Of a stretch of DNA of 64,000 nucleotides, positions 39 to 58,486 are shown in pieces; the stretch's first letter is position 1; the number at the start of each line of letters is the position of its first letter. The DNA comes from Neocallimastix sp. 'constans'. Its lineage: Eukaryota. The stretch lies in contig JBODTK010000122.1 of the NCBI GenBank assembly GCA_050613775.1, positions 372,001 to 436,000 of the forward strand. The letters run 5' to 3'. Position numbers and translations under genes: made by a program. Below the pieces are notes generated by a model that was not told the origin of the DNA, made no database searches, and was given only the letters and a program-made list of their open reading frames with translations.

Positions 39-1988
39 ATGAAAAATGAAACTGATAAAAAGAATAATAATAGTAATAATAGTAATAATAATAATAAAGA
101 AAACCCAGAGAAAAATGAAAATCCATTAGATGATTTAATGGAATTATTAGAACAAAATATTGATTTAGAAGATTTCAGAAAAAAAATGGAAAAATTTAAT
201 AATTATACTGGCTTAAACTTTTTATATAATTATTATTATTATGAAAAACCTGAAGTGACTGATATTGAAAGAAGGAATGGTTTAAAGGGTATAGAAGAAA
301 AAATAATAAAAATAAATGATTTTAAAACTATTAAAGAGAAAATCAAGCTAATAAAACATTTAATAAATAGTCATTTAATTAAAACTGTTGATGATATTAA
401 AGTTTTTCTTAAGGAAAATGAAATTACCATTAAGGAATTAAATAGTCTTAAAGGTTTTGATCTCTTAATCTATTTAATTGAAGGTCAGACTGGCTATATC
501 ACCATTCCATTAATAAAACACGTAGTAAGTTATACTTATTATAAAAATTTAAATTATACCATTTTCAGTAATAAATTTGGAGTTAGGTCGCCACTTCTTT
601 CTGCAATTATTAATAAAAATTATAGAGCTGCGGACTTTTTAATAAAAAGGGGTGCTGATATTAACTTTAAAATAAATTCTATTAATGTTCTCTATTATTT
701 ATTAAATAATCAATTTCTTGATAAAAGTACACTTAAATATTTAATTAATAATGGATATGATGTAGCTGTAATGGATTCCTTTATTATCAATAATTTAAGT
801 AATGATTATATTAATATCATATTTAACTATGGTATCTTTGATAATACTTTTGTTTTGAGGATGCTTCATGGATATAAGAAACAAATACCATTATCAAATG
901 CTCATATTCAATTCTTAGTGGAAAGAGAAAAGAAAAAAATTAAAATTCAAAATGACTGGTATTTTGAAGCCTTTAGTAAATCTGATTATGCAAAGATTGA
1001 TCTTTTATTTACCAATGAAATTATTCCTAATGAAAGCAAAATAAATGATATCATTTATAAAATTTTCTCTATTGTAGATATATATGATATGAAAAATCAT
1101 TCCGATAAGAAATATGAATTTAGAGAAGCAATCGAGAATAAGGAATTAAAGCAATTTCAAAAAATGTCTAAAGAATTTTTAGATGATGTCTCCCTACCAA
1201 ATATAGAACAAAAAAGAAATATGATTAAGGAGATAATGAAAGAAGATAACTTTGAAAGACTTATTGAATATGTTAAAAGGAATAATATCATGACTAAAGA
1301 CTTGAATGATGAACATTTCGATATATTAATTTATGCCATTGAAAACGGAGTATCCTTTGACAATATTTATGAAATTATAAAATTAGCACAATATCATATA
1401 TTTGACTATAAAATAATAGATGATGAAAGTAAAGATTTTAAGACACCATTTTTGGTTGCTATTTCTAATAGAAGATATGATGTAATTGACTTTTTAATAA
1501 ATAATGAAGTAAATATTCATAAACATCTTATTACAATGGTAGATGATAAACCTTGTAACGATCTCATTAACTATTTATGTAGAAATAAAAAATTAAATTA
1601 TCAAAGTCTAATCTACATATTTTCCAAGTTAGATAATAGTAAGGAAGATTATTATGTCGCTCCGGAGTCGTTTAATTATTTAATTGAAAGTTCAAAAAAT
1701 AAAGAAGCAGAATTTCTCATAAATAAATTTTCATTACCAATAGTGGATGATTGGTATAAAAAAGCTGCCCAAGTAGAAAACTTTGGATTTATTGATATGG
1801 CCTTTGAACATGATACCAGAGAATTTGATAAAAAATCTGAAATTCTTCAAACCATATTAGCCGAAAATCTTCATCCAATGAAAATTGCAGAATTTATGAA
1901 ATATACCAAACATACCAAGATAAAAGATATTTATCGGGAAACCATGATAAGTATATTCCAAGGTGAATTTGGAAAATTACTTTCTTAA
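39..1988 (+). CDS. Ankyrin-repeat-containing protein, 649 aa, intronless, two-fold internally repeated module
   Basis: Long open frame in very AT-rich DNA. Ankyrin-like motifs SPLLSAIINKNYRAADFLIKRGADINF and TPFLVAISNRRYDVIDFLINNEVNI, each preceded by a similar FD(L/I)LIY(L/A)IE block. Confidence 0.8.
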   Translation: MKNETDKKNNNSNNSNNNNKENPEKNENPLDDLMELLEQNIDLEDFRKKMEKFNNYTGLNFLYNYYYYEKPEVTDIERRNGLKGIEEKIIKINDFKTIKEKIKLIKHLINSHLIKTVDDIKVFLKENEITIKELNSLKGFDLLIYLIEGQTGYITIPLIKHVVSYTYYKNLNYTIFSNKFGVRSPLLSAIINKNYRAADFLIKRGADINFKINSINVLYYLLNNQFLDKSTLKYLINNGYDVAVMDSFIINNLSNDYINIIFNYGIFDNTFVLRMLHGYKKQIPLSNAHIQFLVEREKKKIKIQNDWYFEAFSKSDYAKIDLLFTNEIIPNESKINDIIYKIFSIVDIYDMKNHSDKKYEFREAIENKELKQFQKMSKEFLDDVSLPNIEQKRNMIKEIMKEDNFERLIEYVKRNNIMTKDLNDEHFDILIYAIENGVSFDNIYEIIKLAQYHIFDYKIIDDESKDFKTPFLVAISNRRYDVIDFLINNEVNIHKHLITMVDDKPCNDLINYLCRNKKLNYQSLIYIFSKLDNSKEDYYVAPESFNYLIESSKNKEAEFLINKFSLPIVDDWYKKAAQVENFGFIDMAFEHDTREFDKKSEILQTILAENLHPMKIAEFMKYTKHTKIKDIYRETMISIFQGEFGKLLS

Positions 1989-10200: not shown

Positions 10201-10459
10201 TATTTTTATGTATTACATTTAATAATAAAAAAAATACATTATTTAATTAAAAGATAAAAAATAAAATGTATATAAAAGATTAAGTAAAATAAAATAAAAA
10301 AAAAAAAAAAAACAATAAAAAATAATTATATAAAAAAAAAATAATAACAAATTTTAATTAATTATAGAAAATTTAATGCAATAAAGAATAAAAATAAGTT
10401 CAAAAGTTAAAAAAAAAAAAAAAAAAAAATTTCGGTGTGATGTATACTATGTGTAGTAA

Positions 10460-10697
10460 TGGATTTTCACCTCCAGATACAGATTCGATTGATAACACTA
10501 ATACTGAAATTATTACTCACAATAATGGACGTGGTGTTATTATCGAGGAATGGGAAAAGTTAGAGGCTATTGCTTCTAACGCACTTTTATAATTTTATTA
10601 TATATAATATTTTATTTCATGTATTTTATTTGTTATTTTTTCATTTAATTTCATGTAATTTTATTATTATTATAAATTAAATAAAGTTTTCTCTAAG

Positions 10698-10730
<33 letters not shown>
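10460..10730 (+). mobile_element. 5'-truncated LINE insertion (ORF C-terminus, 3' UTR, poly(A)) with a 30-bp TSD
   Basis: Encodes DTDSIDN...GVIIEEWEKLEAIASNALL*, matching the C-terminus DTDSND...GVIFDEWEELEAISSSKLIT of the 13.9-kb ORF. Ends aataaagttttctctaagtct(A)30. Flanked by identical TTTCGGTGTGATGTATACTATGTGTAGTAA at 10430-10459 and 10731-10760. Confidence 0.85.
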
Positions 10731-10996: not shown

Positions 10997-11546
10997 AAAC
11001 TTAATGATGGGGAACAAAGACAATTAGTAGACAATATTTTTAAACAAAGTTCTACTTTGTCGACTGTTTCTGTATTTTGTAGGACATTGTGGAGTTTCTA
11101 CCAAACATAATATCATTAATTTTAATTTGTTGATCTTTTTAGATTGATGATGAAATAGTATTCCGTTGAATCTATTGAATCTATTGTTGCTAAGAGCGTC
11201 GACGACGTCGTACTGATAAGGCATAATGATAATACAGGATCGTCATCTATTTCTACGAAGGATGAATCTTGCCCTAGTAGTTCAATAAATGATGAATCTG
11301 GGGAGAGTTTAGTGGACACCACACTATCTATTTTAAAGATGTTACTTCTAGGTTTTATTTCTTTTTTATTTGTTAGGAAGGGAAAAATTCCCGCATAGTA
11401 CAACTTGCCGAAATACATAGTATTTTCGAGCTTTTTTATTTTTTTATTTTTTAATTTTTTTATTTTTAATTTCAAATGTACTTTTCACCTACATGTATTT
11501 TTTTAAAATAAAATTAATAAAGTTTTGGAAGTGTATTCTCTTCCCC

Positions 11547-11581
<35 letters not shown>
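10761..11581 (+). mobile_element. Degenerate LINE 3' fragment (post-zinc-finger region, 3' UTR, poly(A))
   Basis: Frameshifted peptides EQKSLDISLDSEKDYDNDIYNFIWSALL/GGRSIYE/GEQRQLVDNIF align with EKSLNIPDDKEEDFDDNINFYVLCLLLGGNAVFE...GERRRFINNIF. Contains AAGAGCGTCGACG (KSVD) and ends ggaagtgtattctcttccccttct(A)n. Confidence 0.8.
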
Positions 11582-11587
<6 letters not shown>

Positions 11588-12051
11588 GTCGACGTTCGAA
11601 ATGATAAGGCATGGATTTTCACCTTTCCCGTTGAAAGATCTGACTCAAATTCGATTGATAAACACTAATACTAATACTGAAATTATTTACTCGCAATAAT
11701 GGACGTAATGTTATCATTGAGGAATAGGAAAAAGTTAGAAACTATTGCTTCTAACGTACTTTTATAATTATTATAATATATAATACTTTCATTTCAAGTA
11801 TTTTATTTTTTATTTTTTATTTTTTATTTTTTTTTTTATTTTTTATTTTTTATTTTTTATTTTTTATTTTTTATTTTTTATTTTTTATTTTTTATTTTTT
11901 ATTTTTTATTTTTTTATTTTTTATTTTTATTTTTATTTTTATTTTTTATTTTATTTTATTTTTATTTAAATCATTTAATATTTATTATTATTATTATAAA
12001 TTAAATAAAGTTATTCTCTAAGTCTAAACAAAAAAAAAAAAAAAAAAAAAA
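11582..12051 (+). mobile_element. 5'-truncated LINE 3' fragment with poly(A)
   Basis: Starts AAGAGCGTCGACG. 11612-11770 closely resembles 10460-10592. Ends aataaagttattctctaagtct followed by an A-tract. Confidence 0.8.
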
Positions 12052-12646
12052 TTTCTGAATTATGAGGTGTGTAATATATATATGTGATATAGTACGCGAT
12101 ATGGCAAAGGAATAGTGTGGTTAGAAGTCCTATTAATTCTCATCAACATACATTTAACTAACAGCACAGTTCCAAACACAGAACCTATAGTTTAAGTAAT
12201 TCAATTTTTGATGATTTTTCTTATGATTCAGGGGATAGTTTTAATGGATACAACATTGTTTATTTTAAAGATGGTACTTTTTTGATTTTATTATTTTAGA
12301 TTTAATTGGTGATCCAGTGAGAAAAGCTAGGTACAACTAACACCACCCCATGGGCAACATTTAGGGTAATCTTCTGAAACTATTTTTCTTTCAATGGAAA
12401 TAGAAAATTACTAATAATAAATAACAACGATTATCATCATTTGACCTATGCTGTGCTGAGCTTGAATAGATTTCTAGTTTTATATATATATATATATTTA
12501 AATTATAAAGTTATCGTAATTCGTACCTTTAATTTTTTTTTTTTTTTTTTTTTTAGACTAGGAAGAGAATACACTTCCAAGTCTTTTTTTTTTTTTTTTT
12601 TCGTACCTTTAATTCGTACCTTGGAATTTAGCAACCATCAAACCAT

Positions 12647-13745
12647 TTTTTTTTTTTTTTTAACGGCAGCAAACTTGTTTCATCTTTATTAATTAAATAT
12701 TTGATAAAATACATGTAATAAAATAAAAAAAAAAAAAGATAAAAAAAATAAACAAAAAATAAAACACAAAATAAAATAAAATAATGGTATAATATATTCT
12801 AGTTTCATTTAATTAATATTTGTAAGACTTCACAAGGGCATTATTATACTGAAGTATAATAATTAATTTTGACTTCGCAATGTTAATCATAATTTTAAGA
12901 AACAAAATTATGATCTTCATTGGTTGCGCTATCCCTGCTGGCCTGTTTTACTGTTTCTTCAGCATTGACGTTCTTGGTAGTAGTAGTACGATTCGATTTG
13001 AACCTATTGAACAAAGACCATTGCTGGCCAATAGCAATAGGTATAATTGATTGGAGAAGTGCCGCAGTAACCACTAAGAACGGAGTATCAGAATAAGCAC
13101 CTGATTTCATTTGGCACTTAAATAGATCCTCCCATTCCCTTGTACTTTTATTAATACTTCGACCTCCAAGAAGGAAATTAAACACTTTTTCACACACACT
13201 AGAATCAATATACACATTATTTTCAATACTATTACTAACATTACTAAAAATATTATTACTAGTAATACTATAACTATTATTACTATTACTATTATTACTA
13301 TTACTATTATAACTATTACTATTATCATTATTACTATTAACTATATCATTTGTTAGGTTGCCACGGTTAAAAGCATTATATAAAAATAAAATTTTATCAT
13401 TAACTTTACTACGAATATGATCGAAAAAAGGACAATCAATTAACCAATGACTTATCTATTGTTTATTACTTTTACAACAGGGACAAAAATTAGGACACAT
13501 TTGATCTACTATTTTTGCAGCTTTAGCAATTCTAGCATCTAATCTATATCCGCTTCGTGCTCTCAATAGCCAATAGAAACCATATAAAAGATCAGGATAT
13601 TCATAACAAAGTTTTATAAATTTTGATGTTTTTTTCGAATTTGTTTTTGTCATAAAACTCAGCTTTAATAGAATTGATTTTCATATCTCTTTTCCAATAA
13701 AAATCCTTGATTTTATTATCGTTATTACCTCTTTTCTCTAGTTTA
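12647..13745 (-). mobile_element. Degenerate LINE C-terminal portion, interrupted by the younger 13759-17817 element
   Basis: Peptides GFYWLLRARSGYRLDARIAK...CPNFCPCC and NFLLGGRS...EWEDLFK...EDHNFVS are homologous to the LINE C-terminal domain. An A-tail lies at 12647-12661 on the minus strand. Confidence 0.8.
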
Positions 13746-13886
13746 CGTTTAACCATCATTTTTTTTTTTTTTTTTTTTTTTTAGACTAGGAATAAACTTT
13801 ATTTAATAATATTATTTTAAAAAATACATGAAATTTAAATACATGAAATTTTTTTTTTTTTTTTTTTTTATATTAATATTAAAAAA

Positions 13887-16800
13887 CTACGTTATGAGCT
13901 TCGAGGACGAAATGGCCTCTAACTCTTCCCATTCATCGAAGATAACCCCATGTGGATGAAAATTATCATTCGAATCTGTATCAGAATTTCTTCTTTGCCT
14001 TATCGTTACGACGTCGACGCTCTTGACAACGGTAGGTCTAACACTATACAAATCGATCATGGTGTAAAAATCACCAATCATAATAGGCATAACGTTAGTA
14101 AGGAATTCCGCAAGCCCCACAAAATATGAAATCGGGAAAGAAGACTCGTTCGAAGGTGAATGAAAAATATTATTAATAAATCGCCTTCTTTCCCCCGAGC
14201 CGATCTTTAAGATTTCAAATACTGCATTTCCGCCAAGAAGGAGACACAGCACGTAAAAATTGATATTATCATCAAAATCTTCCTCTTTATCATCAGGAAT
14301 GTTCAATGATTTCTCATGAACAATTAGAGAAAAATTAATAAAAATTTCATCAACAAAGGGAATGAAATGTTGCCTAAATTCTTCAAATTTAGGACATAAA
14401 AGTATCCAGTGTGTAAAACTAGGTATGCTGTTACTCTCACCACAACAAGGGCAGTATGTTGGGCAATTTTCTGATACTAGATTACTTTTAACATACGTTT
14501 TTACATCAAATTTGAATCCACATTTAATTCGTCCAATCCAAAAAAATCCAAGAGAAAATTGTGAATATTTTAGTGATAGACGATGAATAAATTTTTTAAA
14601 ACCAAATTTAAATTTCTTGTATTTTGTAGATCTGATCGCAGGAGTGCTTGAATAATGAATATTTTCCCAGTAAAACTTCCTTATTTCTCCAGGAAGTTTA
14701 TTATTGTGCTTGTGTACTGCTAAACTCCGTGCTTTTTTCGTCCATGAATAGTGAGAAAGTGTAGGTATATTTTTGACTAAATGAGAAATAATACAAGAAG
14801 AATCTTTCCACTTTTTAAAGCATCGAATCATCGCCTTAGCACAAAAACTAGCTATAGGAGGTATAGAAAGTTCCTTAGACATATTTTAAATTGAAGTATT
14901 GGAGGTTTTATTTTTAAACCCGAAACTCCAATACAAACCTCGATTAAAAGCAGTTTGAGCTTTTTCAGTATTCTTTTTATTTGAACCAAGTAAGGGAGCA
15001 TAATAAAGAACTGAACTAAGGACAAAAGAAACTAGTATACGAGTTTTAAAGTAGAAAGGAACATTCCTATTGGTTAAAAATCTAAAGAAAGAGTTAACTG
15101 TATAATTAATTTTACTATTCATCTTAGCAATAATAGGTTTTAAATCCAACGATTCATTAAAAGGTATACCAAGATATGTATATTGATTAGTGCTTGGTAT
15201 ATAGTTCATACCAAGTCTAAATGTAGGATTTTCATAATGTCTTGAAGGTATAAAATTCTTTGGTTTAACAACTAGTGTAGCGCATTTATTGATTCCAAAG
15301 GTCATTTCATTTTTAATACCCCAATCATGAGCAATATTCAAAAGGTTTTTAAGTGAAGATTTTGTAGGAGCTAATAATACAATATCATCAGCAAATAATC
15401 CACCACAACACTTTTTCTTTTCAGTAATCACACCATATCTTTTACATTTATCAAAAATATCATTGATAAATATATTGAATAAGATAGGTGAGAGAGGACA
15501 CCCTTGGCGAACACCACGGTGTATTGGAAATTCTTTTGAAAGTTTACCATTAAAGTTTGCACGAGCTTTCGAGGTAAGGTATAGATTAGTAATGAATTGA
15601 AGGCATTTACCACGAATACCAAGATTATCTAGTTTAGTAAGTATATTGTAAATTGGAACTGAATCATAAGCTTTTTTTAGGTCAAGAAAGGCAAGAAAGG
15701 TAAATTTATCCTTAAATTTTCTTCTTTGACAAATTTCACGAATGGATACAAATAAACTAATACATTCTTCTTTATTTCTAAAACCAAACTGTTCTGGTCT
15801 AATTATTCCATTAGAAAAAGCATAGTCCGATATTCTTTTAGTGACAATTTTTGATAGAATTTTTAAACCTACAATGATGAGAGAAATACCACGATAATTA
15901 TTACAATCTGAAAGATCCCCTTTTTTAGGAATAGAAACAATAGAAGCAGAGTTCCATTCATTAGGAAAGTCACCATCCCAAATTTTATTAGAAAGTAATA
16001 ACAGACACTTTGCACAATCGGAATAAGTAACCTCTTGATTAGAGTCATCCTGAGAAGAAGTTCTACTCTCAGGATTAAAAAATGCTTTAAAAAATTCTGT
16101 AGGTATACCATCAGGACCAGGTGCTTTGTTATTTTTCATTGAAAGAACAGTTGAATGAATTTCTGACATGGAAATAGGTTGATTAATATCCCATGATTCC
16201 TGAGGAGTAGAAAAATTATTAAGTATTTTTTTCCAATAATTTTCATTAAGACTGTGACCAGTTGTATCAGAAGCAAGTGAGCCAGTTAGCAAAATCAGTT
16301 TCCGCTTTTTCTCTAGAGTCTTTGTGTTTTTTGCTAGGGATGTAAATGTTCCCTAAAGAACATCTGACACCCCAAAAAGAGAATATATTTACTGAGAGTA
16401 TATATCTATATTCAAAATCATCATTAGTGAATTGGCAGGAGGAGTGCACACCTATATAAAGGCCCCTCATACCAGGGATTTTTTTGTCCGCACGTCTCAG
16501 TACTGTTCTATAATGATTAAGGAATGGATATGAGTTAGAAAAAGAGTTAAGGAATGAACTATTACCGACTTCTTGAAGACAAATACAAATAGGATTAAAG
16601 ATTGAATTAAAATTGGTAAGTCCGTCACGTTTTTCAGAATTCCAACCATTTATGTTCCAGCTAATACAGAGGTTGAAATATTGAGTATTCGAGAAAGGGT
16701 TAGCATACAGGAGGCTTTCAGAGATGGGGATTGAGGGTTCAGAATAATACCTGGTTCTATTATGATTAACATTGCTAAATGTGCGTATCCTTGAAGTAAT

Positions 16801-17085
16801 CTTCCATTTTATTCTTTTAACAGGTAAGTGCTTAGTAATCAAATAAATAACCTTCAAATAATCCGTATAATTGTTATAGTTAACTCTTAGGATGAAGTAG
16901 TTTTCCATATTAATATAGTGTTTTTTAACGATTCCATGAATAACTTCATTACAATTTGATATCTTTTTGCTTAAAAATTCCCATAGTCTACTTTCAGTCC
17001 AAGATTCAAGATCATGAATGAAAATTAAAACAAATTTATCATGGTCAGGACCATAATGTCGCAGACCTCTTCGTATAGTTGACAT
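13887..17085 (-). pseudogene. Disrupted LINE polyprotein (N-terminal domain, APE endonuclease, reverse transcriptase, Cys/His domain)
   Basis: The three track ORFs are pieces of one frame. 14886-16292 and 13887-14882 are separated by a single in-frame TAA (TCA ATT TAA AAT ATG). The APE part stops at FANWL before GDFN/SDH and changes frame into LASDTTGHSL near 16280, consistent with a deletion junction. Confidence 0.9.
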
Positions 17086-17319
17086 AATAAAATAAAAAAC
17101 TTATCTATATTAATAAAAAGTAAATGTAATATAAAAATAAAAAATAAAATTAGTAAAAAATTAAAAAATTAAAAAAAAAAAAATAAAAATTTATTGCTGT
17201 TGTCTTCTCTTTCGTGTATATTGTTTGCTAAAACTTGTTTGTTTTTCTTTCTTTTTGTGTTGACTAGTTTTTAATTAATGATTTTCAATTATAAATTCCT
17301 GTTTTATGTAAAAATTTCT

Positions 17320-17817
17320 GTAAAATAATCATATATAATATAAAATTTAAATGTTAATGAAATAATAGTTGTGAAAAAACTATAAAAAGATTCCCATCCG
17401 TTAAATAATGTCTTAAACACAAGCTTTGGAGTGAATCAATCTCCTACATTTCCATTTTACAATAGCTACATGAAAGTATAAATAATACTATAGAAAAATA
17501 CATATACAAAATAATGCTAAAGTAAAAAATACAATAGATTCATTACAATGATAATATGTAGAAACTACATGATATTATTAATTATACAACTCCAATGTTA
17601 CTACATATCCAGTTTAAAACAATATAAAACATCAGGTTCACTTTCTACAGTCTTCCAGTATTCCAGTTTTCACTCTTCGTACTAGAAGCCACTTTAGAAA
17701 GGATAACCATATATTATCATCAGAATCACAGAAAGCTGTAATTAGTACACCTGATATAGGTTAATCCTTTTCCATCAACCCTCCATGGACCTGGAAAAAC
17801 AGTCCACTTCATTGGGG
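17320..17817 (-). ncRNA. Candidate structured 5' leader RNA of LINE copy 1 (kink-turn/pseudoknot and multi-hairpin domain)
   Basis: Shared with 57970-58486, including an identical block of more than 60 nt. Minus-strand start reads CCCC-AAU-GA-AGUGGAC-UGUUUUUCCAG-GUCCAUG-GA-GGG-UUGA-UGGAAAAGG. Folded by eye. Confidence 0.6.
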
Positions 17818-17830
17818 CGTTTAACCATCA

Positions 17831-17915
17831 GACCAGTAATAATGTCTTGAAAGGGATAAGGTTCTTTGGTTTAACAACAACAAAGTACATTTACCTAAAT
17901 CTAAAAGTCATTTCA
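17831..17915 (-). mobile_element. Short LINE RT remnant forming the target of the 13759-17817 insertion
   Basis: ttctttggtttaacaaca...catttacc...gtcatttcattt resembles 15257-15313 (NEMTFG.NKC..LVVKPKN.IPSRHY). Confidence 0.65.
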
Positions 17916-18472
17916 TTTCTTTTAGCATTTTTAAAATAAAAATAAAAATAAAAATAAAAATAAAAATAAAAATAAAAAAAGTTTCTTTTTCTTTATTTCC
18001 ATGATATTGCCCTCCTCTAAAAGGCAAAAACACAATTCAATATTGAAATAGCATTAAATTATTAAATTTAGCAAATTTACACTTTTTCTATCTTAATTTT
18101 TTTTTTTATATATCTTTATATATATATATTATTATTTTTTTTTTCTATTTATTTATTTATTTATTTATTTATTATTTATTTATTTATTTGTTTATATGAA
18201 ATTTTATTTATTTATTTTACTTTTTATTATTTGAAGTTTATATGAATTTCTTTATATTAAAATTGTTCATCTATTATTTTAAAGGTTTAATTTATTTTAC
18301 CTATTATTATTATTATTATTACATTTAATAATAATATATAGCTTATGAAATATTTTTCAAAGATGAACAATTTATTTTGAAAAAATAAAAAAAAATATAT
18401 ATATTAAAAATATTAAATAATATATTATTTTTTAAATTGCAAAAATTACTATTTTACAATTTTTATTTCTCT

Positions 18473-19155: not shown

Positions 19156-19782
19156 TTAATATTCGTAAAGTGAAATATCATCATCTTCTTCTTCAGTTTT
19201 ATTCCATGGATAGTATGGATTTGAAACAGTTATACCCTTACTCAAACTATCGTTTGAACTTGTGCTACTACCAATTATTATAGTTTCTGAAGAACTTGAG
19301 TAAGAACTTTCAGAAGAGTTTGATGAAAAAGATCCCTTAAATCCATTAGTAATAGCAAAGCCTCCATGTTGATGATATTTATGGTTAAGATGCCCATGCT
19401 CAATATTATACATATTCTTTTTAGTTAATTCACAAGATCTAAAGACCTTATCATTTTGATTTAGCCATTGACTTAAACCACTTGAAACACTTGGATTGTA
19501 ACAACCTGCATCATAATTTGGTCTATTTCTAAACTTTAAATCATTACCTTGGTAAAATAAAAGTTTATCTGGATTATTCAAATACTTTGAAGAGGCATTA
19601 TAGGAACTTGGACTACTACCTCCACTAATCATACTAGAGTTATCATTAAACGATCCATATTCAGTAGGTAAACTACTAAGTTTTAAGCCCTTTTCATCTT
19701 GGTTTCTACAGAGAGAACAGCAATATAACTCTCCATTAGTTTGCTTTCCACAATTTAAGCACCAATTGGTATCAATATCCAT
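19156..19782 (-). CDS. Ecl1-family (life-span regulatory, zinc-binding) protein, 208 aa, intronless
   Basis: N-terminal WCLNCGKQTNGELYCCSLCRNQD fits the Ecl1 pattern C-x2-C-x-K-Q...LYC-x3-C-x3-D. It is followed by a Ser-rich disordered tail. Confidence 0.8.
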   Translation of the reverse strand: MDIDTNWCLNCGKQTNGELYCCSLCRNQDEKGLKLSSLPTEYGSFNDNSSMISGGSSPSSYNASSKYLNNPDKLLFYQGNDLKFRNRPNYDAGCYNPSVSSGLSQWLNQNDKVFRSCELTKKNMYNIEHGHLNHKYHQHGGFAITNGFKGSFSSNSSESSYSSSSETIIIGSSTSSNDSLSKGITVSNPYYPWNKTEEEDDDISLYEY

Positions 19783-35904: not shown

Positions 35905-38115
35905 TTAATTTTTTGGTTTTGGTGATAATATTTCTTTTATATTTTGATTCAGAGATGACAAATCGATTCTACTTTTATCTAATTCGATTTCATGACTATT
36001 GGCATATTCCATTAATAATTTTACAATTTCTAAATTACCATTATTACATGCCTCATAAAGTGGATAATCTCCATATTCATCTTTATCATTCAAAGTTAAT
36101 GTTATATTTTTTTGATTGGCATATTCCATTAATAATTTTACAATTTCTAAATTACCATTATTACATGCCTCATGAAGTGGATAATCTTCATATTCATCTT
36201 TATCATTCAAAGTTAATGTTATATTTTTTTGATTGGCATATTCCATTAATAATTTTACAGTTTCTGGATTATTTTTTTTACATGCCAAATAAAGTGGATA
36301 CCATTCATTTTCATTTTCATTTTTATCATTCAAAGTTAATGTTATATTTTTTTGATTGGCATATTCCATTAATAATTTTACAATTTCTGAATTACCATAT
36401 AGACATGCGTTATAAAGTGGATAAAATCCATTTTCACTTTTATCATTCATAATTAATGTTATTTGTTTTTGATTTGCATACTCGATTAATAATTTTACAG
36501 TTTCTAAATTACCACTATAACATGCCAACTCAAATGAATAATTTCCATATTCATTTTTATTATTCAAAGTTAATGTTATATTTTTTTGATTGGCATATTC
36601 CATTAATAATTTTACAATTTCTGAATTACCATTACTACATGCCCGATAAAGTGGATAATCTCCATTTTCATTTTTATCATAATACCATCCTTTTACATTT
36701 TTATTTTTATCATTCACAGTTAATGTTATATTTTTTTGATTGGCATATTCGATTAATAATTTTACAGTTTCTGAATTATTATTTCTACATGCCAAATAAA
36801 GTGGATACCATCCATTTTCATTTTCATTTTTATCATTCAAAGTTAATTCTATATCATGTTGATTTGCATATTCGATTAATAATTTTACAATTTCTGAATT
36901 ACCATTTTTACATGCGTAATAAAGTGGATAATATCCATTTTTTTTATCATTCACAGTTAATGTTATATTTTTTTGATTGGCATATTCGATTAATAATTTT
37001 ACAATTTCTGAGTTATTATTATTGCATGCCTCATAAAGTGGATAATTTCCATTATCATTTTTATCATTCAAAGTTAATTCTATATCATGTTGATTTGCAT
37101 ATTCGATTAATAATTTTACAATTTCTAAATTATCTTTATTACATGCAAATAAAAGTGGATACCATCCTTGGTTAACTTTATCATTCAAAGTTAATTTTAT
37201 ATTTTTTTGATTGGCATATTCCATTAATAATTTTACAATTTCTGAATTATTTTTATAACATGCTAATAAAATTGGATAAATTCTTTCTTTATTTTTATCA
37301 TTCAAAGTTAATGTTATTTGTTTTTGATTAGCATATTCCATTAATAATTTTACAATTTCTAAATTATCACTATAAAATGCACTTAAAAGTGGATACCATC
37401 CATTTTTAGTTTTATCATTCAAAGTTAATGTTATTTGTTTTTGATTAGCATATTCGATTAATAATTTTATAATTTCTAAATTACCACTTTTAATTGCGGA
37501 ATAAAGTGGATACCATCCATCGTCATCTTTATCATTCAAAGTTAATGTTATTTGTTTTTGATTAGCATCTTCCATTAATAATTTTACAATTTCTAAATTA
37601 CCCATATGAAATGCACTTAAAAGTGGATAATATCCATCTTTAGTTTTATCATTCAAAGTTAAAGTTATTTGTTTTTGATTAGCATATTCCATTAATAATT
37701 TTACAATTTCTAAATTATCATTACGAAATGCGTTATAAAGTGGATACCATCCATTATCATCTTTATCATTCAAAGTTAATGTTATTTGTTTTTGATTTGC
37801 ATATTCGATTAATAATTTTACAATTTCTAAATTACCATTAAAACATGCCGAATAAAGTGGATACCATTCATTGTAATTTTTATCATTCACAATTAATGTT
37901 ATATTATGTTGATTTGCATATTCGATTAATAATTTTACAATTTCTAAATTATTTTTGACACATGCATATAAAAGTGGATATTCATCAAAAAAACTTTTTT
38001 CATTGATTTTTAAAACAATATTATTTTGGTTAGCATCATTAATTATTGATTTTACTTTTTCAAGATTATTTTTTTTACAAGCTTTCAAAAATGGCTTTTT
38101 TTTAAATAGTCCCAT
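35905..38115 (-). CDS. Ankyrin tandem-repeat protein, 736 aa, intronless
   Basis: About 17 near-identical ~40-aa units of the form YPLxxACxNxNxEIVKLLxEYANQKxITLTLNDK. Confidence 0.92.
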   Translation of the reverse strand: MGLFKKKPFLKACKKNNLEKVKSIINDANQNNIVLKINEKSFFDEYPLLYACVKNNLEIVKLLIEYANQHNITLIVNDKNYNEWYPLYSACFNGNLEIVKLLIEYANQKQITLTLNDKDDNGWYPLYNAFRNDNLEIVKLLMEYANQKQITLTLNDKTKDGYYPLLSAFHMGNLEIVKLLMEDANQKQITLTLNDKDDDGWYPLYSAIKSGNLEIIKLLIEYANQKQITLTLNDKTKNGWYPLLSAFYSDNLEIVKLLMEYANQKQITLTLNDKNKERIYPILLACYKNNSEIVKLLMEYANQKNIKLTLNDKVNQGWYPLLFACNKDNLEIVKLLIEYANQHDIELTLNDKNDNGNYPLYEACNNNNSEIVKLLIEYANQKNITLTVNDKKNGYYPLYYACKNGNSEIVKLLIEYANQHDIELTLNDKNENENGWYPLYLACRNNNSETVKLLIEYANQKNITLTVNDKNKNVKGWYYDKNENGDYPLYRACSNGNSEIVKLLMEYANQKNITLTLNNKNEYGNYSFELACYSGNLETVKLLIEYANQKQITLIMNDKSENGFYPLYNACLYGNSEIVKLLMEYANQKNITLTLNDKNENENEWYPLYLACKKNNPETVKLLMEYANQKNITLTLNDKDEYEDYPLHEACNNGNLEIVKLLMEYANQKNITLTLNDKDEYGDYPLYEACNNGNLEIVKLLMEYANSHEIELDKSRIDLSSLNQNIKEILSPKPKN

Positions 38116-54667: not shown

Positions 54668-56046
54668 TTTTTTTTTATAACCGCAATTATTACTAACTTT
54701 AATATTTATTTATTTATTTATTAATTAATTATATGAATATTTTTTATTTTTTTTTATAAAAAAAAAAAAAAACACATAATTAAAAAAAAAAAATAAATAT
54801 TATTTGTTCAATTAGAACATAATGATATTTAAAATAGTATCGTGAAATAAAAAAAAAAAGTAATATTCAAAAATAAAGTGTATAAATAAATTCAGAAAAA
54901 AAAAAAAATTCATTGGTAAACAAACCTCATCTCCATATTACCTGTTCCGGATTAGGGTTTGAATTGACTATCTGAAAGGAAATTATGGTCTTCTCCTTCA
55001 GAGAGAGACATTGATCCTGGTAGCCTGTCATACTGCATTTTCAGTATTGATGCTCCTTGGTTAATTTGCGCTTATATACCGTCGGAATTAGCAATCCTTG
55101 TCGAGTACTGGCCCTTAGGCATTATTTCTGTAAAGAGAGCCAGTAGATCACATCAAGAATGACGTTTTTTGAATAATCACTAGAAATGATTTGGTTCTTA
55201 AACAAAACATCCCATTCTTTTTTTTTTTTTTTTTTTAAATAATTTAAATCAATAATGTCTTCATCTCTTCCATCAAGAAGAAAGTTATATAATAGATACC
55301 ACGTCACGTATATATTTATACACCCATTATTCCGAAAGAATTTCTTAAATTAACACGATTTTCACCAACTGAATTATTCACTACACTATTAGTAACGATA
55401 CTATTATTTTCACTATCACTAATATTAATACTAAAATTGATATTTTCACTATCACTAACACTAAAATTAATATTTTCACTTTCACTCATACTACTATTAT
55501 TTATTAACAATATTATTTCTATTCTTATTATTATTTATATTATTTATATTATATCCTTTGTTACTACCATCAGAATCTGTACGTGATTCTATATTATTCA
55601 TTTTCCGTGATAATAGTGATTACATTACTATATGATATTGGTCATTATTTAGAAATCATAAAAAAATTTTTCATAAAGAATTTCAATATCCTTAAAAATA
55701 TTTCATTTTAAAAACCCGGAAAAGATAGCAATTAGTAAAGCTAATGTTCCAGTCAAGGATCTCTTTTTTTTTTTTTCTAATAATAACAAGGACACCTCTC
55801 TGGATAGTCATCTTCAATCATTTTTGGCGACTTTTACAACACAAGCATCAAACTTAAATCCATATCTGGCATATGAAGTACCCATCGAAAGCCAATATAC
55901 TAAATTCAGGATACTTAAAAGTTAAGCCTTTAGGGAGTCTCTAGTCTCTAGTTTTTCCAAAATTTAAATTTTTTTTTTTTTTATAAGCTTTAGCCTTGAT
56001 TGATTTTCCTGCTATATCTCTATCCCAGTAAAAGTTTAAAATTGAT

Positions 56047-56077
<31 letters not shown>

Positions 56078-57094
56078 AAATTTATCTAATTTGTCTACTA
56101 AAAAATTTTTTTTTTTTTAACTTTCTTTATCCAATTTTAATTCAATATAAATATTCTTATTTCTCTAAATTCGTTACATTTTTTTTTTATAAAATTGATT
56201 CACATAGTACAGTATACAAGTCAACAATTCTTAGTAAATTCATTGGAATCACTTATAGATTTGTAATCTTTAATTTATTAATATATTATATATGCTTTAC
56301 CTTTTGAGGACAATACTTTTTTTTTTGCGGGATATTCTAAACATCGCTTTTTTGATATCTGTTGAAGATGTCATCGATAAATCCTTAGCCATGGAATTAG
56401 TAGTGTTAATGAACTTTTCAACTCTACTATCTGCTGAAAGCTCTTAATATTTCCTGATTCTTCACTGAAGAATCTTAAATTTATTGTGATCAGATGCTGA
56501 AGGATCATCAACAAAAAAAGTACTTGATATTTTTATCCAGTATACTTGAATTGACTAACACACTCATGATCAATATCTGAGGAATATCTACATTTCATCC
56601 ATGAAATAGATGAATCATTAATCTGGAAAGATAAACCTGTTACCAAGACTATTGTTGGTTAATTTATCTTGTATATCAGTGGTGCTCATGTTAAAATCGC
56701 TAAGAAGAATAGATGGATGGATGGATGATTAGTGTAATTCTGAAGCCATGTGAAAACCTCAAAGAAAGGATATCGTCCTTGTAATAAGTGCTTCCTAATG
56801 GGAATATAGGCAATACCTTATAGAGTACACAGAGTGATTTCACAGACTATATATTTGTTAAAGAAACAAGATGAGTATAGAAATTATCTTCAAGAACTGC
56901 TTAACATGAGACATGATACTCAAGATATAAACCTCTGCAACCTGGCGTATTAGGATCTATTCTTTTCTGGAAATATTTGTAGTTGGGGAAGTGTTACTTT
57001 ACATGGATTTCTAAGTATCAAATGGTACCATTACCTGTTTCCTTGAAAACATAGGAATAATGGTTTAAAAATCATGTTGAAGTATTCAATATTA

Positions 57095-57149
<55 letters not shown>

Positions 57150-58486
57150 ATTCCATCCATTGGTATTCCAACTCTGACAAAAAGAAAATTTTTCTGTGTT
57201 AGAATATGAAATTGGATTCTGAGAATTAAGATTAGGTATATTGGGAGCATTGAGTTCATGATTTGCCATTTATAACATTTGCTAAATTAGTTGAACTGAG
57301 ATTTACTTAGTTTGTATTATTGGATGTGTTATTAGATACTAAATTTTGTTTTTTTAAAATGCTAAAGAGCAATCCTATGATTCCATTTGGAACATCTACC
57401 ATATGAAATTTTTAACTCCTGTAATTGATTTTTCTAATATTTTTTTCAAATTTTTCATGGCTGAAATTTGGAGTGCATACTTTTATCCTGATGAAACTAT
57501 CATTGAATTTAGTAATTTTTTTTCACTGACAAAATTATCCTTGAATTTTTTTTGTAAATCTTGAATGAATAAATTCCTTCATTTTAGTAATTGGTTCATG
57601 AGCGTACGTACAACGAATAAAAATCAACCATGTATTGTCGATAGATGTTCCATATCAGCGAGAACCCCGGTGATATATCTTTTCCATAGTGAGCTATAAA
57701 TTATAAATTGATAAAAAAATTGAAATCAATATAAACTAAAATACTAAAAATATAAGAAATATAGATGATATAAATAAAAATATATTAAAAAAAATAAATA
57801 TGGAAAAATTAAAAAAAAAAAAAAAATTAAAATAATTTAAATTAATATGAAGTTTTTTCTTTGTGTAGAAATTCAATTTATGAATTTTATTGTAATGAAT
57901 AATCTCTTGTGTTGAGTTTTTGATGTTCTATTCGATTAATAAAGTTTGATTAATGTAATAATTTTCTTTAAAAATAATCATATATAAACTAAGATGGAAA
58001 AGTAAATAAAATATTAGTAGTGAAAAACTATAAAACAATTCCCATCCATTAAATAAAGTCTTAAACACAAGCTTCGGAATAAATCAATCTCCTACATTTC
58101 CATTTTATAATAGATACATGAGAGTTTAAATAATACTATAGAACATATAACAAAATAATGCTAATGAAAAAAAAAAAAAAAAAATACAATAGATTCATTA
58201 CAATGATAATATGTAGAAACTACATGATATTATTAATTATACAACTCTAATATTACTACATATCCAGTTTAAAAACAATATAAAACATCGGGTTCACTTT
58301 CTATAGTCTTCCAGTATTCCAATTTTCTCTCTTCGTACTAGAAGCCACTTTAGAAAGGATAACCATCCATTATCATCAGAATCACAGAAAACTGAAATTA
58401 GTACATTTGGTGTAGGCTATTCCTTTATTCCTTTTCCGTCAACCCTCCATGGACCTTGGAAAAACAGTCCATATCATTGGCGGGGG
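54668..58486 (-). mobile_element. Degenerate 5'-complete LINE lacking the RT domain
   Basis: 14-bp TSD GATCAATAATTCAA at 54654-54667 and 58487-58500. A-tail at 54668-54676. ORF start near 57687 (MEKIYHRGSR*YG...LIFI versus MSTIRRGLRHYG...LIFI). APE remnants SWNTNGW, ILLSDFN and SDH, then a jump to C-terminal FYWDRD, CPC and NFLLDGR...EWDVLFK. No RT motifs seen. Confidence 0.88.
57970..58486 (-). ncRNA. Candidate structured 5' leader RNA of LINE copy 2
   Basis: Minus-strand start reads CCCCCGCC-AAU-GA-UAUGGAC-UGUUUUUCCAAG-GUCCAUG-GA-GGG-UUGA-CGGAAAAGG. Homologous to 17320-17817. Confidence 0.6.

Follow-up and report, generated by a model that had tools for sequence, protein, structure and literature searches.

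The window, by which we mean the whole 64,000-nucleotide stretch analysed, is very AT-rich and carries two copies of a retroelement on its minus strand. The features of these copies are as follows.

17817-13759, minus strand: copy 1, a non-LTR retrotransposon with a 13-bp TSD and polyA
17818..17830, minus strand: 5' TSD of copy 1, 13 bp, with the same 13 bp at 13746-13758 past the polyA
17086..17817, minus strand: 5' UTR of copy 1, 732 nt with 15 AUGs
16267..17085, minus strand: ORF piece 1 of copy 1, a predicted ferredoxin-like (RRM-like) N-terminal domain and the first part of the APE endonuclease
14886..16352, minus strand: ORF piece 2 of copy 1, reverse transcriptase (RT; RVT_1, E 2e-37), with a stop at its end
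13887..14885, minus strand: ORF piece 3 of copy 1, C-terminal region with a Cys/His knuckle
13746..13782, minus strand: polyA tail (13782-13759) and 3' TSD (13758-13746) of copy 1
54668..58486, minus strand: copy 2, a decayed element with a 14-bp TSD, the same 5' module (G1b at 58475) and a divergent coding region

Copy 1 is an APE-type non-LTR retrotransposon, with APE and RT domains, polyA and a TSD. Its coding part is a single ORF that is now broken; judged against the 99%-identical P0121, ORF piece 1 is followed by an internal deletion. The predicted ferredoxin-like (RRM-like) domain, with a beta-alpha-beta-beta-alpha-beta order, occupies residues 18-97 of ORF piece 1 (16795-17034, minus strand), ahead of APE. 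It was modelled with a pLDDT of 70-90 and had no Pfam match, and a fold search with the N-terminal domain returned nothing at E 0.001 or better. As the predicted model is not L7Ae-like, the domain was rejected as an L7Ae-like protein. The best named RT relatives were proteins of Orpinomyces and Piromyces (50-77% identity); Batrachochytrium, brown algae and others came next. Many RT matches were proteins of Batrachochytrium salamandrivorans, the genome of which has LINE/RTE-X families; possible membership of the element in the RTE-X clade is a lead only. Public runs with matching sequence were mostly gut or faeces metagenomes, with two coded organisms besides. The RT relatives and these runs make an anaerobic gut fungus the probable host. 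Contig depth summed over the element, which is not a copy number, reached thousands of times single-contig depth, and this suggests that the element family is very abundant. Copy 1 is nested in an older related element, with an RT remnant upstream (17839-17918, minus strand, 79% to 15234-15312) and, past its 3' TSD, remnants of a C-terminal region (12895-13745, minus strand).

A preliminary description of this DNA had placed an RNA motif at the exact 5' end of a retrotransposon, and the boundaries bear this out. TSDs (13 bp with polyA in copy 1, 14 bp in copy 2) mark the element boundary in both window copies, and copy 2 begins at the same motif. Loose ends of aligned contigs also cluster at 17816-17817: among the 5'-side ends listed, 53/108 were located at 17817 and 21/108 at 17816, the others at 17815 (10/108), at 17813 (11/108) or further in (13/108). 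These counts come from four runs, three of which (X7, X9 and X11) have loose-end sequences in common and may represent one organism. The sequences aligned to the window were contigs throughout; the sole contig from an RNA library (X5) continues into another flank, so that no RNA start is readable from it. One contig each in X1 and X7 contained a joint going back 126 nt (17691-17816), a tandem duplication of the 5' segment.

The motif reads on the minus strand from 17817 to 17766, and nucleotides are numbered from 17817. Its parts, together with the second hairpin discussed below, are given here.

17759..17817, minus strand: predicted 5'-terminal RNA module, element nt 1-59, with k-turn hairpin, pseudoknot partner and possible second hairpin
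17807..17814, minus strand: k-turn bulged strand, -1b C, 3-nt bulge ending in U, then G1b A2b A3b G4b
17781..17785, minus strand: k-turn non-bulged strand, U4n G3n G2n A1n G-1n, which is U33 G34 G35 A36 G37
17785..17807, minus strand: NC-arm hairpin of 7 bp (11-17/27-33) with a 9-nt pyrimidine-rich loop, pair probabilities 0.56-0.96
17793..17798, minus strand: loop strand of the predicted pseudoknot or kissing helix, U20-C25, from complementarity
17768..17773, minus strand: 3' strand of the predicted pseudoknot or kissing helix, G45-A50, from complementarity
17759..17780, minus strand: alternative second hairpin, nt 38-42 with 55-59, with the pseudoknot 3' strand in its loop

In copy 1 the bulged strand consists of C4 (17814), the bulge A5 A6 U7 and then G8 A9 A10 G11, giving a C:G pair at -1, A:G at 3b:3n and G:U at 4b:4n. 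According to the accessible text of a study of k-turn folding (PMC8191799), C:G at -1 is best for folding, a G at 3n allows folding in ions, and G:U at 4b:4n improves folding if 3b:3n is A:G. Under these rules the copy 1 sequence fits the class predicted to fold best. The same features (3-nt bulge, tandem G:A/A:G, -1 C:G, 3b:3n A:G and 4b:4n G:U) are shared with the standard k-turns Kt-7, drum and RAGATH-18, whereas the C helix of 1-3 bp at the 5' terminus and the eukaryotic retroelement context are particular to the module described here. A comparison by eye with the RAGATH-18 crystal oligo (PDB 7EAG, as given in the accessible text of PMC8191799) found 12/13 k-turn core positions to be equal; L1 differs. 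The preliminary reading as a k-turn of the standard pattern is strengthened by this, and the bulge and the tandem G:A/A:G pairs are present in 4/4 copies. The Rfam check proposed at the same time gave no family match to the module, and neither the RAGATH-18 nor the drum family matched it as a whole. RAGATH-18 is described, in the part of the literature accessible to us, as a long stem-loop beside IS607 TnpB. Given the negative Rfam result, and since RAGATH-18 is another RNA, one associated with TnpB, we regard the likeness as convergence on a good k-turn and not as membership.

Four copies, all close relatives, were compared: copies 1 and 2 of the window and the metagenome loci L022 and L054. 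The two loci were the true copies among 87 loci found in a metagenome scan with a downstream anchor, the other 85 being dropped as anchor-only chance matches. The sole match in the genome_contigs scan (L088, GC 50%) was likewise a chance match, scans of viral_contigs for the module found nothing, and a covariance model (R1) run on the window recovered only the two known copies, the next match scoring 13 bits. C4:G37, the 3-nt bulge including its U, the G:A and A:G pairs, the G at 3n, the stem and the pseudoknot were kept in 4/4 copies. The loop strand U20-C25 can form 6 Watson-Crick pairs with G45-A50, and 7 in copy 1 and L054. Both the loop complementarity and its preservation along with the tandem G:A pairs had been anticipated, and both hold across the copies. 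The sites that differ are 3b (A or U), 4b (G.U or A-U), the loop length and the outer C-helix pairs: 3b:3n is A:G once and U:G three times, and the C helix has 3, 2, 3 and 1 bp in the four copies, with C.A at -2 in L054. Copy 2 had been described as keeping all elements with one compatible change from G.U to A-U. This change is found at 4b:4n as claimed, but copy 2 also has A to U at 3b, an extra A in the loop and a C helix of only 2 bp.

The covariation in stem and pseudoknot to which the preliminary description had looked was not seen: 0/16 pairs were changed on both sides among the four close copies, which leaves the structure unsupported by covariation. Identity between copies 1 and 2 was 92% in the first 50 nt and 86-96% in the next 400 nt; as the first 50 nt are no more conserved than what follows, conservation in copy 2 is uninformative. 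Contig variant tables contained variable sites at 0/23 positions of the module and at 24/175 positions of the rest of the UTR (Fisher p 0.08). These tables miss differences near alignment ends (17764 is present in one table and absent from another) and are therefore silent on 17788-17817, the last ~30 nt. In the visible part, substitutions of at least 1% occurred only at 3n (G34) and linker G42, so that the only k-turn substitution at this level falls on 3n, where the rules tolerate variation. One run also contained four 1-nt indels near 1%, including one at G35. Within nt 54-228, variable positions showed no deficit of pairing relative to the others (p 0.46).

Copy 2 shares ~450 nt of 5' UTR with copy 1 at ~90% identity, whereas its coding remnant is ~30% identical in the one alignable APE stretch. 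This difference within 54668-58486 suggests UTR swapping between LINE lineages. At L054:1340-1666, the initial ~125 nt of the element are flanked by two RT-like coding pieces, one on each side, in a rearranged derivative or a chimeric contig.

Chance expectation was estimated with dinucleotide shuffles of the first 60 nt of the element. A loose k-turn descriptor matched 223/20,000 shuffles, and 5/20,000 when a 6-bp pseudoknot was added. A strict descriptor matched 29/50,000 shuffles and 1/400 windows along the element, and a rule-conforming k-turn plus a 6-bp pseudoknot was present in 44/300,000 shuffles. A hairpin plus pseudoknot without the k-turn was frequent (237/5,000); the pseudoknot alone is therefore unsurprising. 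In the window the loose descriptor had 10 matches, 2 of them copies 1 and 2, and on both strands the strict descriptor matched twice only, at the 5' ends of copies 1 and 2. All descriptors were made after the sequence was seen, with the k-turn rules taken from the accessible text of an independent paper (PMC8191799). The 5' motif is a real, statistically unusual sequence feature.

The minimum free energy of the module was ordinary (z 0.54). In ViennaRNA, which has no terms for k-turns or pseudoknots, the nearest-neighbour ensemble backed only the 7-bp stem, and C-helix pair probabilities were at most 0.002. The second hairpin (G38-G42 with U55-C59) competes with the C helix for the G-run and outscored the terminal C helix in 4/4 copies, with k-turn and pseudoknot terms absent; in L054 it scored worse than the first hairpin alone. 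Its pairing is kept under A57G (29% of depth in X7, also present in copy 2) and under the 8-nt insertion of copy 2. The predicted pseudoknot may thus be a kissing loop between two hairpins and not a simple loop-to-strand knot. With two hairpins, C4:G37 would form a stack with the second of them, and a kissing contact between the loops would bridge the kink. In the terminal C-helix model, rough geometry suggests that a 5-nt linker would have to span about 21-24 Å in the kinked form versus 34-36 Å in a straight one. Under both models it is the kink that would make the long-range pairing possible. Nothing points to a three-way k-junction; those tested by others gave no response to L7Ae, as far as the accessible text of that work goes. 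Overall we consider it likely that a real k-turn/loop-loop module folds at the 5' end, pseudoknot included. Further into the 5' UTR there is a long hairpin (17641-17701, minus strand); the 90-nt window around it had a z of -3.9, the lowest of 14 windows. The variants 17667 and 17672, both common, would together exchange a single pair in its small apical stem, should they be present on the same copy.

The CCAAUGA...GAGG core had been likened to the k-turn of U4 snRNA, which is bound by Snu13/15.5K. K-turn-assisted pseudoknots, in which a kinked hairpin docks its loop downstream, are found in SAM-I and c-di-GMP-II riboswitches. The module differs from these by the lack of a ligand pocket and of an Rfam match, and by its place in a eukaryotic mobile element. 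Closer likenesses concern the position of the RNA end. In 15.5K-bound RNAs, box C lies 4 nt (45%) or 5 nt (53%) from the 5' end, and only a minority have a C stem of two or more pairs (accessible text of bioRxiv 10.64898/2026.08.03.742641). Measured from the two commonest element ends (17817 and 17816, among the ends listed), the box-C-equivalent strand of the module is 5 or 4 nt away. A short or absent C stem and a bulged strand 4-5 nt from the end are thus shared with 15.5K/Snu13-bound box C/D, k-turn and K-loop RNAs, to the extent that the accessible text describes them. In those RNAs the partner is a 3'-terminal D box, whereas the partner strand of the module is local; 3b:3n and 4b:4n also differ from the C/D type, and the module heads a 4-5 kb coding RNA. 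An identity as box C/D snoRNA was rejected, the partner strand not being CUGA and the snoRNA matches in Rfam being sub-threshold only. With the D-box side non-canonical, assembly of a full C/D snoRNP is unlikely. The xrRNA-D of dianthoviruses and poleroviruses shows the same order of P1, internal loop, P2 and a loop that forms a pseudoknot with sequence on its 3' side; the base of its P1 is where Xrn1 halts (accessible text of PMC6299227). The RNA end would be at the base of P1 in both, and by analogy the module may resist exonucleases. There is no Rfam or sequence match to xrRNA-D, and the internal loop is a k-turn in the module.

These likenesses suggest a role for the module as a 5' cap structure. 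The first ~55 nt would fold as a k-turn, and the kink would let the hairpin loop pair with the downstream purine run, yielding a compact cap. Such a cap would likely bind the host protein Snu13/15.5K and would likely set or protect the RNA 5' end by stalling 5'-to-3' exonucleases. Longer read-through transcripts would be trimmed back to 4-5 nt ahead of the bulged strand, as happens with RNAs of the box C/D type and with viral xrRNAs, and trimming to a fixed point would let every new copy inherit the same end without a ribozyme. We favour this k-turn cap because of the 4-5 nt end register of 15.5K RNAs and the helix order of xrRNA-D; that it sets or protects the RNA 5' end in the manner of snoRNAs or xrRNAs is a tentative proposal, to which we give somewhat less than an even chance. 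Snu13 binding and the trimming of read-through transcripts we infer more weakly than the folding. The full route, in which the 5' end of a LINE RNA is made by host exonucleases halted at a Snu13-bound k-turn pseudoknot, is doubtful but worth stating. To our knowledge, the origin of a defined, stable 5' end of non-LTR elements is known only for elements with an internal promoter or a ribozyme, and the exonuclease-stop route, if true, would be a third beside these two.

The same sharp end could arise at the DNA level, if the first 50 nt were an internal promoter or start site and the k-turn and pseudoknot were incidental or secondary. This is unlikely in our view, although the GC-rich start (50% in nt 1-52 versus 19% past nt 200), the about equal conservation of the whole first 450 nt and the lack of double-sided covariation (0/16, four copies) would all agree with a promoter. 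It would be unusual for Pol II to start at a pyrimidine run, neither a Pol III A box nor a tRNA was found in the 732-nt 5' UTR, and a promoter gives no account of a k-turn and pseudoknot as rare in shuffles as found here or of strict matches confined to two 5' ends in the window. Transcription from Pr77 of L1Tc starts at +1 (accessible text of PMC3383444), so a sharp end is equally well explained by a promoter. Alternatively, the k-turn module could be real and serve not in setting the end but as a scaffold, either for translation initiation or for the RRM-like protein of the element in its RNP. With 15 AUGs in the UTR, initiation by simple scanning is unlikely, the N-terminal domain has a predicted ferredoxin-like fold, and the 5' ribozymes of R2 and L1Tc have been proposed as IRES and protein-binding sites (accessible text of PMC6765202). 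We nevertheless consider a scaffold quite unlikely: the module is ~680 nt away from the start codon, the 4-5 nt register of the end would be left unexplained, and the N-terminal domain lacks a match at E 0.001 or better in the fold search.

Non-LTR elements are reported, in the accessible literature, to carry HDV-like (R2, L1Tc, RTE) and twister T-variant (Perere-3) ribozymes at their 5' ends, and with these the element shares an exact, TSD-adjacent 5' end of an APE and RT element with variable flanks. This signature led to the idea that the module is the core of a new self-cleaving ribozyme, cut just 5' of nt 1, that frees the element from co-transcripts. Moreover, the five bases after 3n and the next four are identical to those at the 3' end of a single twister row from S. 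mansoni in the accessible alignment. The ribozyme analogy drawn in the preliminary description nonetheless fared badly. Rfam 15 scans gave 0 matches at gathering score and 4, 2 and 1 sub-threshold matches at E up to 10, none of a ribozyme. The HDV-like descriptor (home-made, without a positive control) matched 0/4 copies, no conserved complement of the first bases was present across copies as HDV P1 needs, and the double pseudoknot and P2/T2/P4 core of HDV-like and twister ribozymes are missing. The twister descriptor, also without a positive control, had no match in the module in 4/4 copies and one unrelated match further down in copy 2 only. Hammerhead was rejected as well: its descriptor (again without a positive control) had no match in the module, and the core heptamer at nt 95 lies outside the module, with 0-2 closing pairs in the window copies and 4 in one L022 register. 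Pistol, hatchet and twister-sister had no covariance model match in Rfam 15; pistol cuts at its own P2-P3 junction, so that the module would be lost from new copies. Since the k-turn, stem and pseudoknot already account for every conserved base, a new ribozyme appears improbable, a little more so than a scaffold. The capture of a host box C/D-like small RNA as the head of the element, as in SINE-like chimeras, is very improbable. It would fit the bulged strand, which agrees with box C at 6/7 positions in 3/4 copies, the D-box tetramer and near box C at nt 95-101, and the presence in copy 2 of the same UTR ahead of a divergent coding region. SnoRNA matches scored only 17-18 bits against cut-offs of 39-55, however, and the k-turn partner is local (nt 33-37).

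The k-turn cap, if true, would add a mechanism based on a host protein or an exonuclease block and would link the snoRNP/U4 factor Snu13 to a mobile element. Even without an end-setting function, the module would be a k-turn in unusually full agreement with the rules and, apparently, a known motif in a place not yet described, a retrotransposon 5' end. A literature search on titles and abstract starts, with subscription journals and Repbase/Dfam outside its scope, yielded neither a k-turn at a retrotransposon 5' end nor an RNA motif of gut-fungal LINEs. The accessible main text of a survey of fungal motifs (PMC5640933) contains none of the terms kink, k-turn, retrotransposon, Neocallimast or Piromyces.

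Several other features were noticed in the window. A pair of 68-bp inverted repeats with 87% identity (11505-11572 and 12533-12600), about 1 kb apart, is possibly part of a small DNA element, and 11560-12051 also repeats 10409-10726. Two ORFs encode ankyrin repeats (39-1988, plus strand, and 35905-38115, minus strand). An ORF at 19156-19782 (minus strand) resembles the Ecl1 family, with a score just below the Pfam cut-off.
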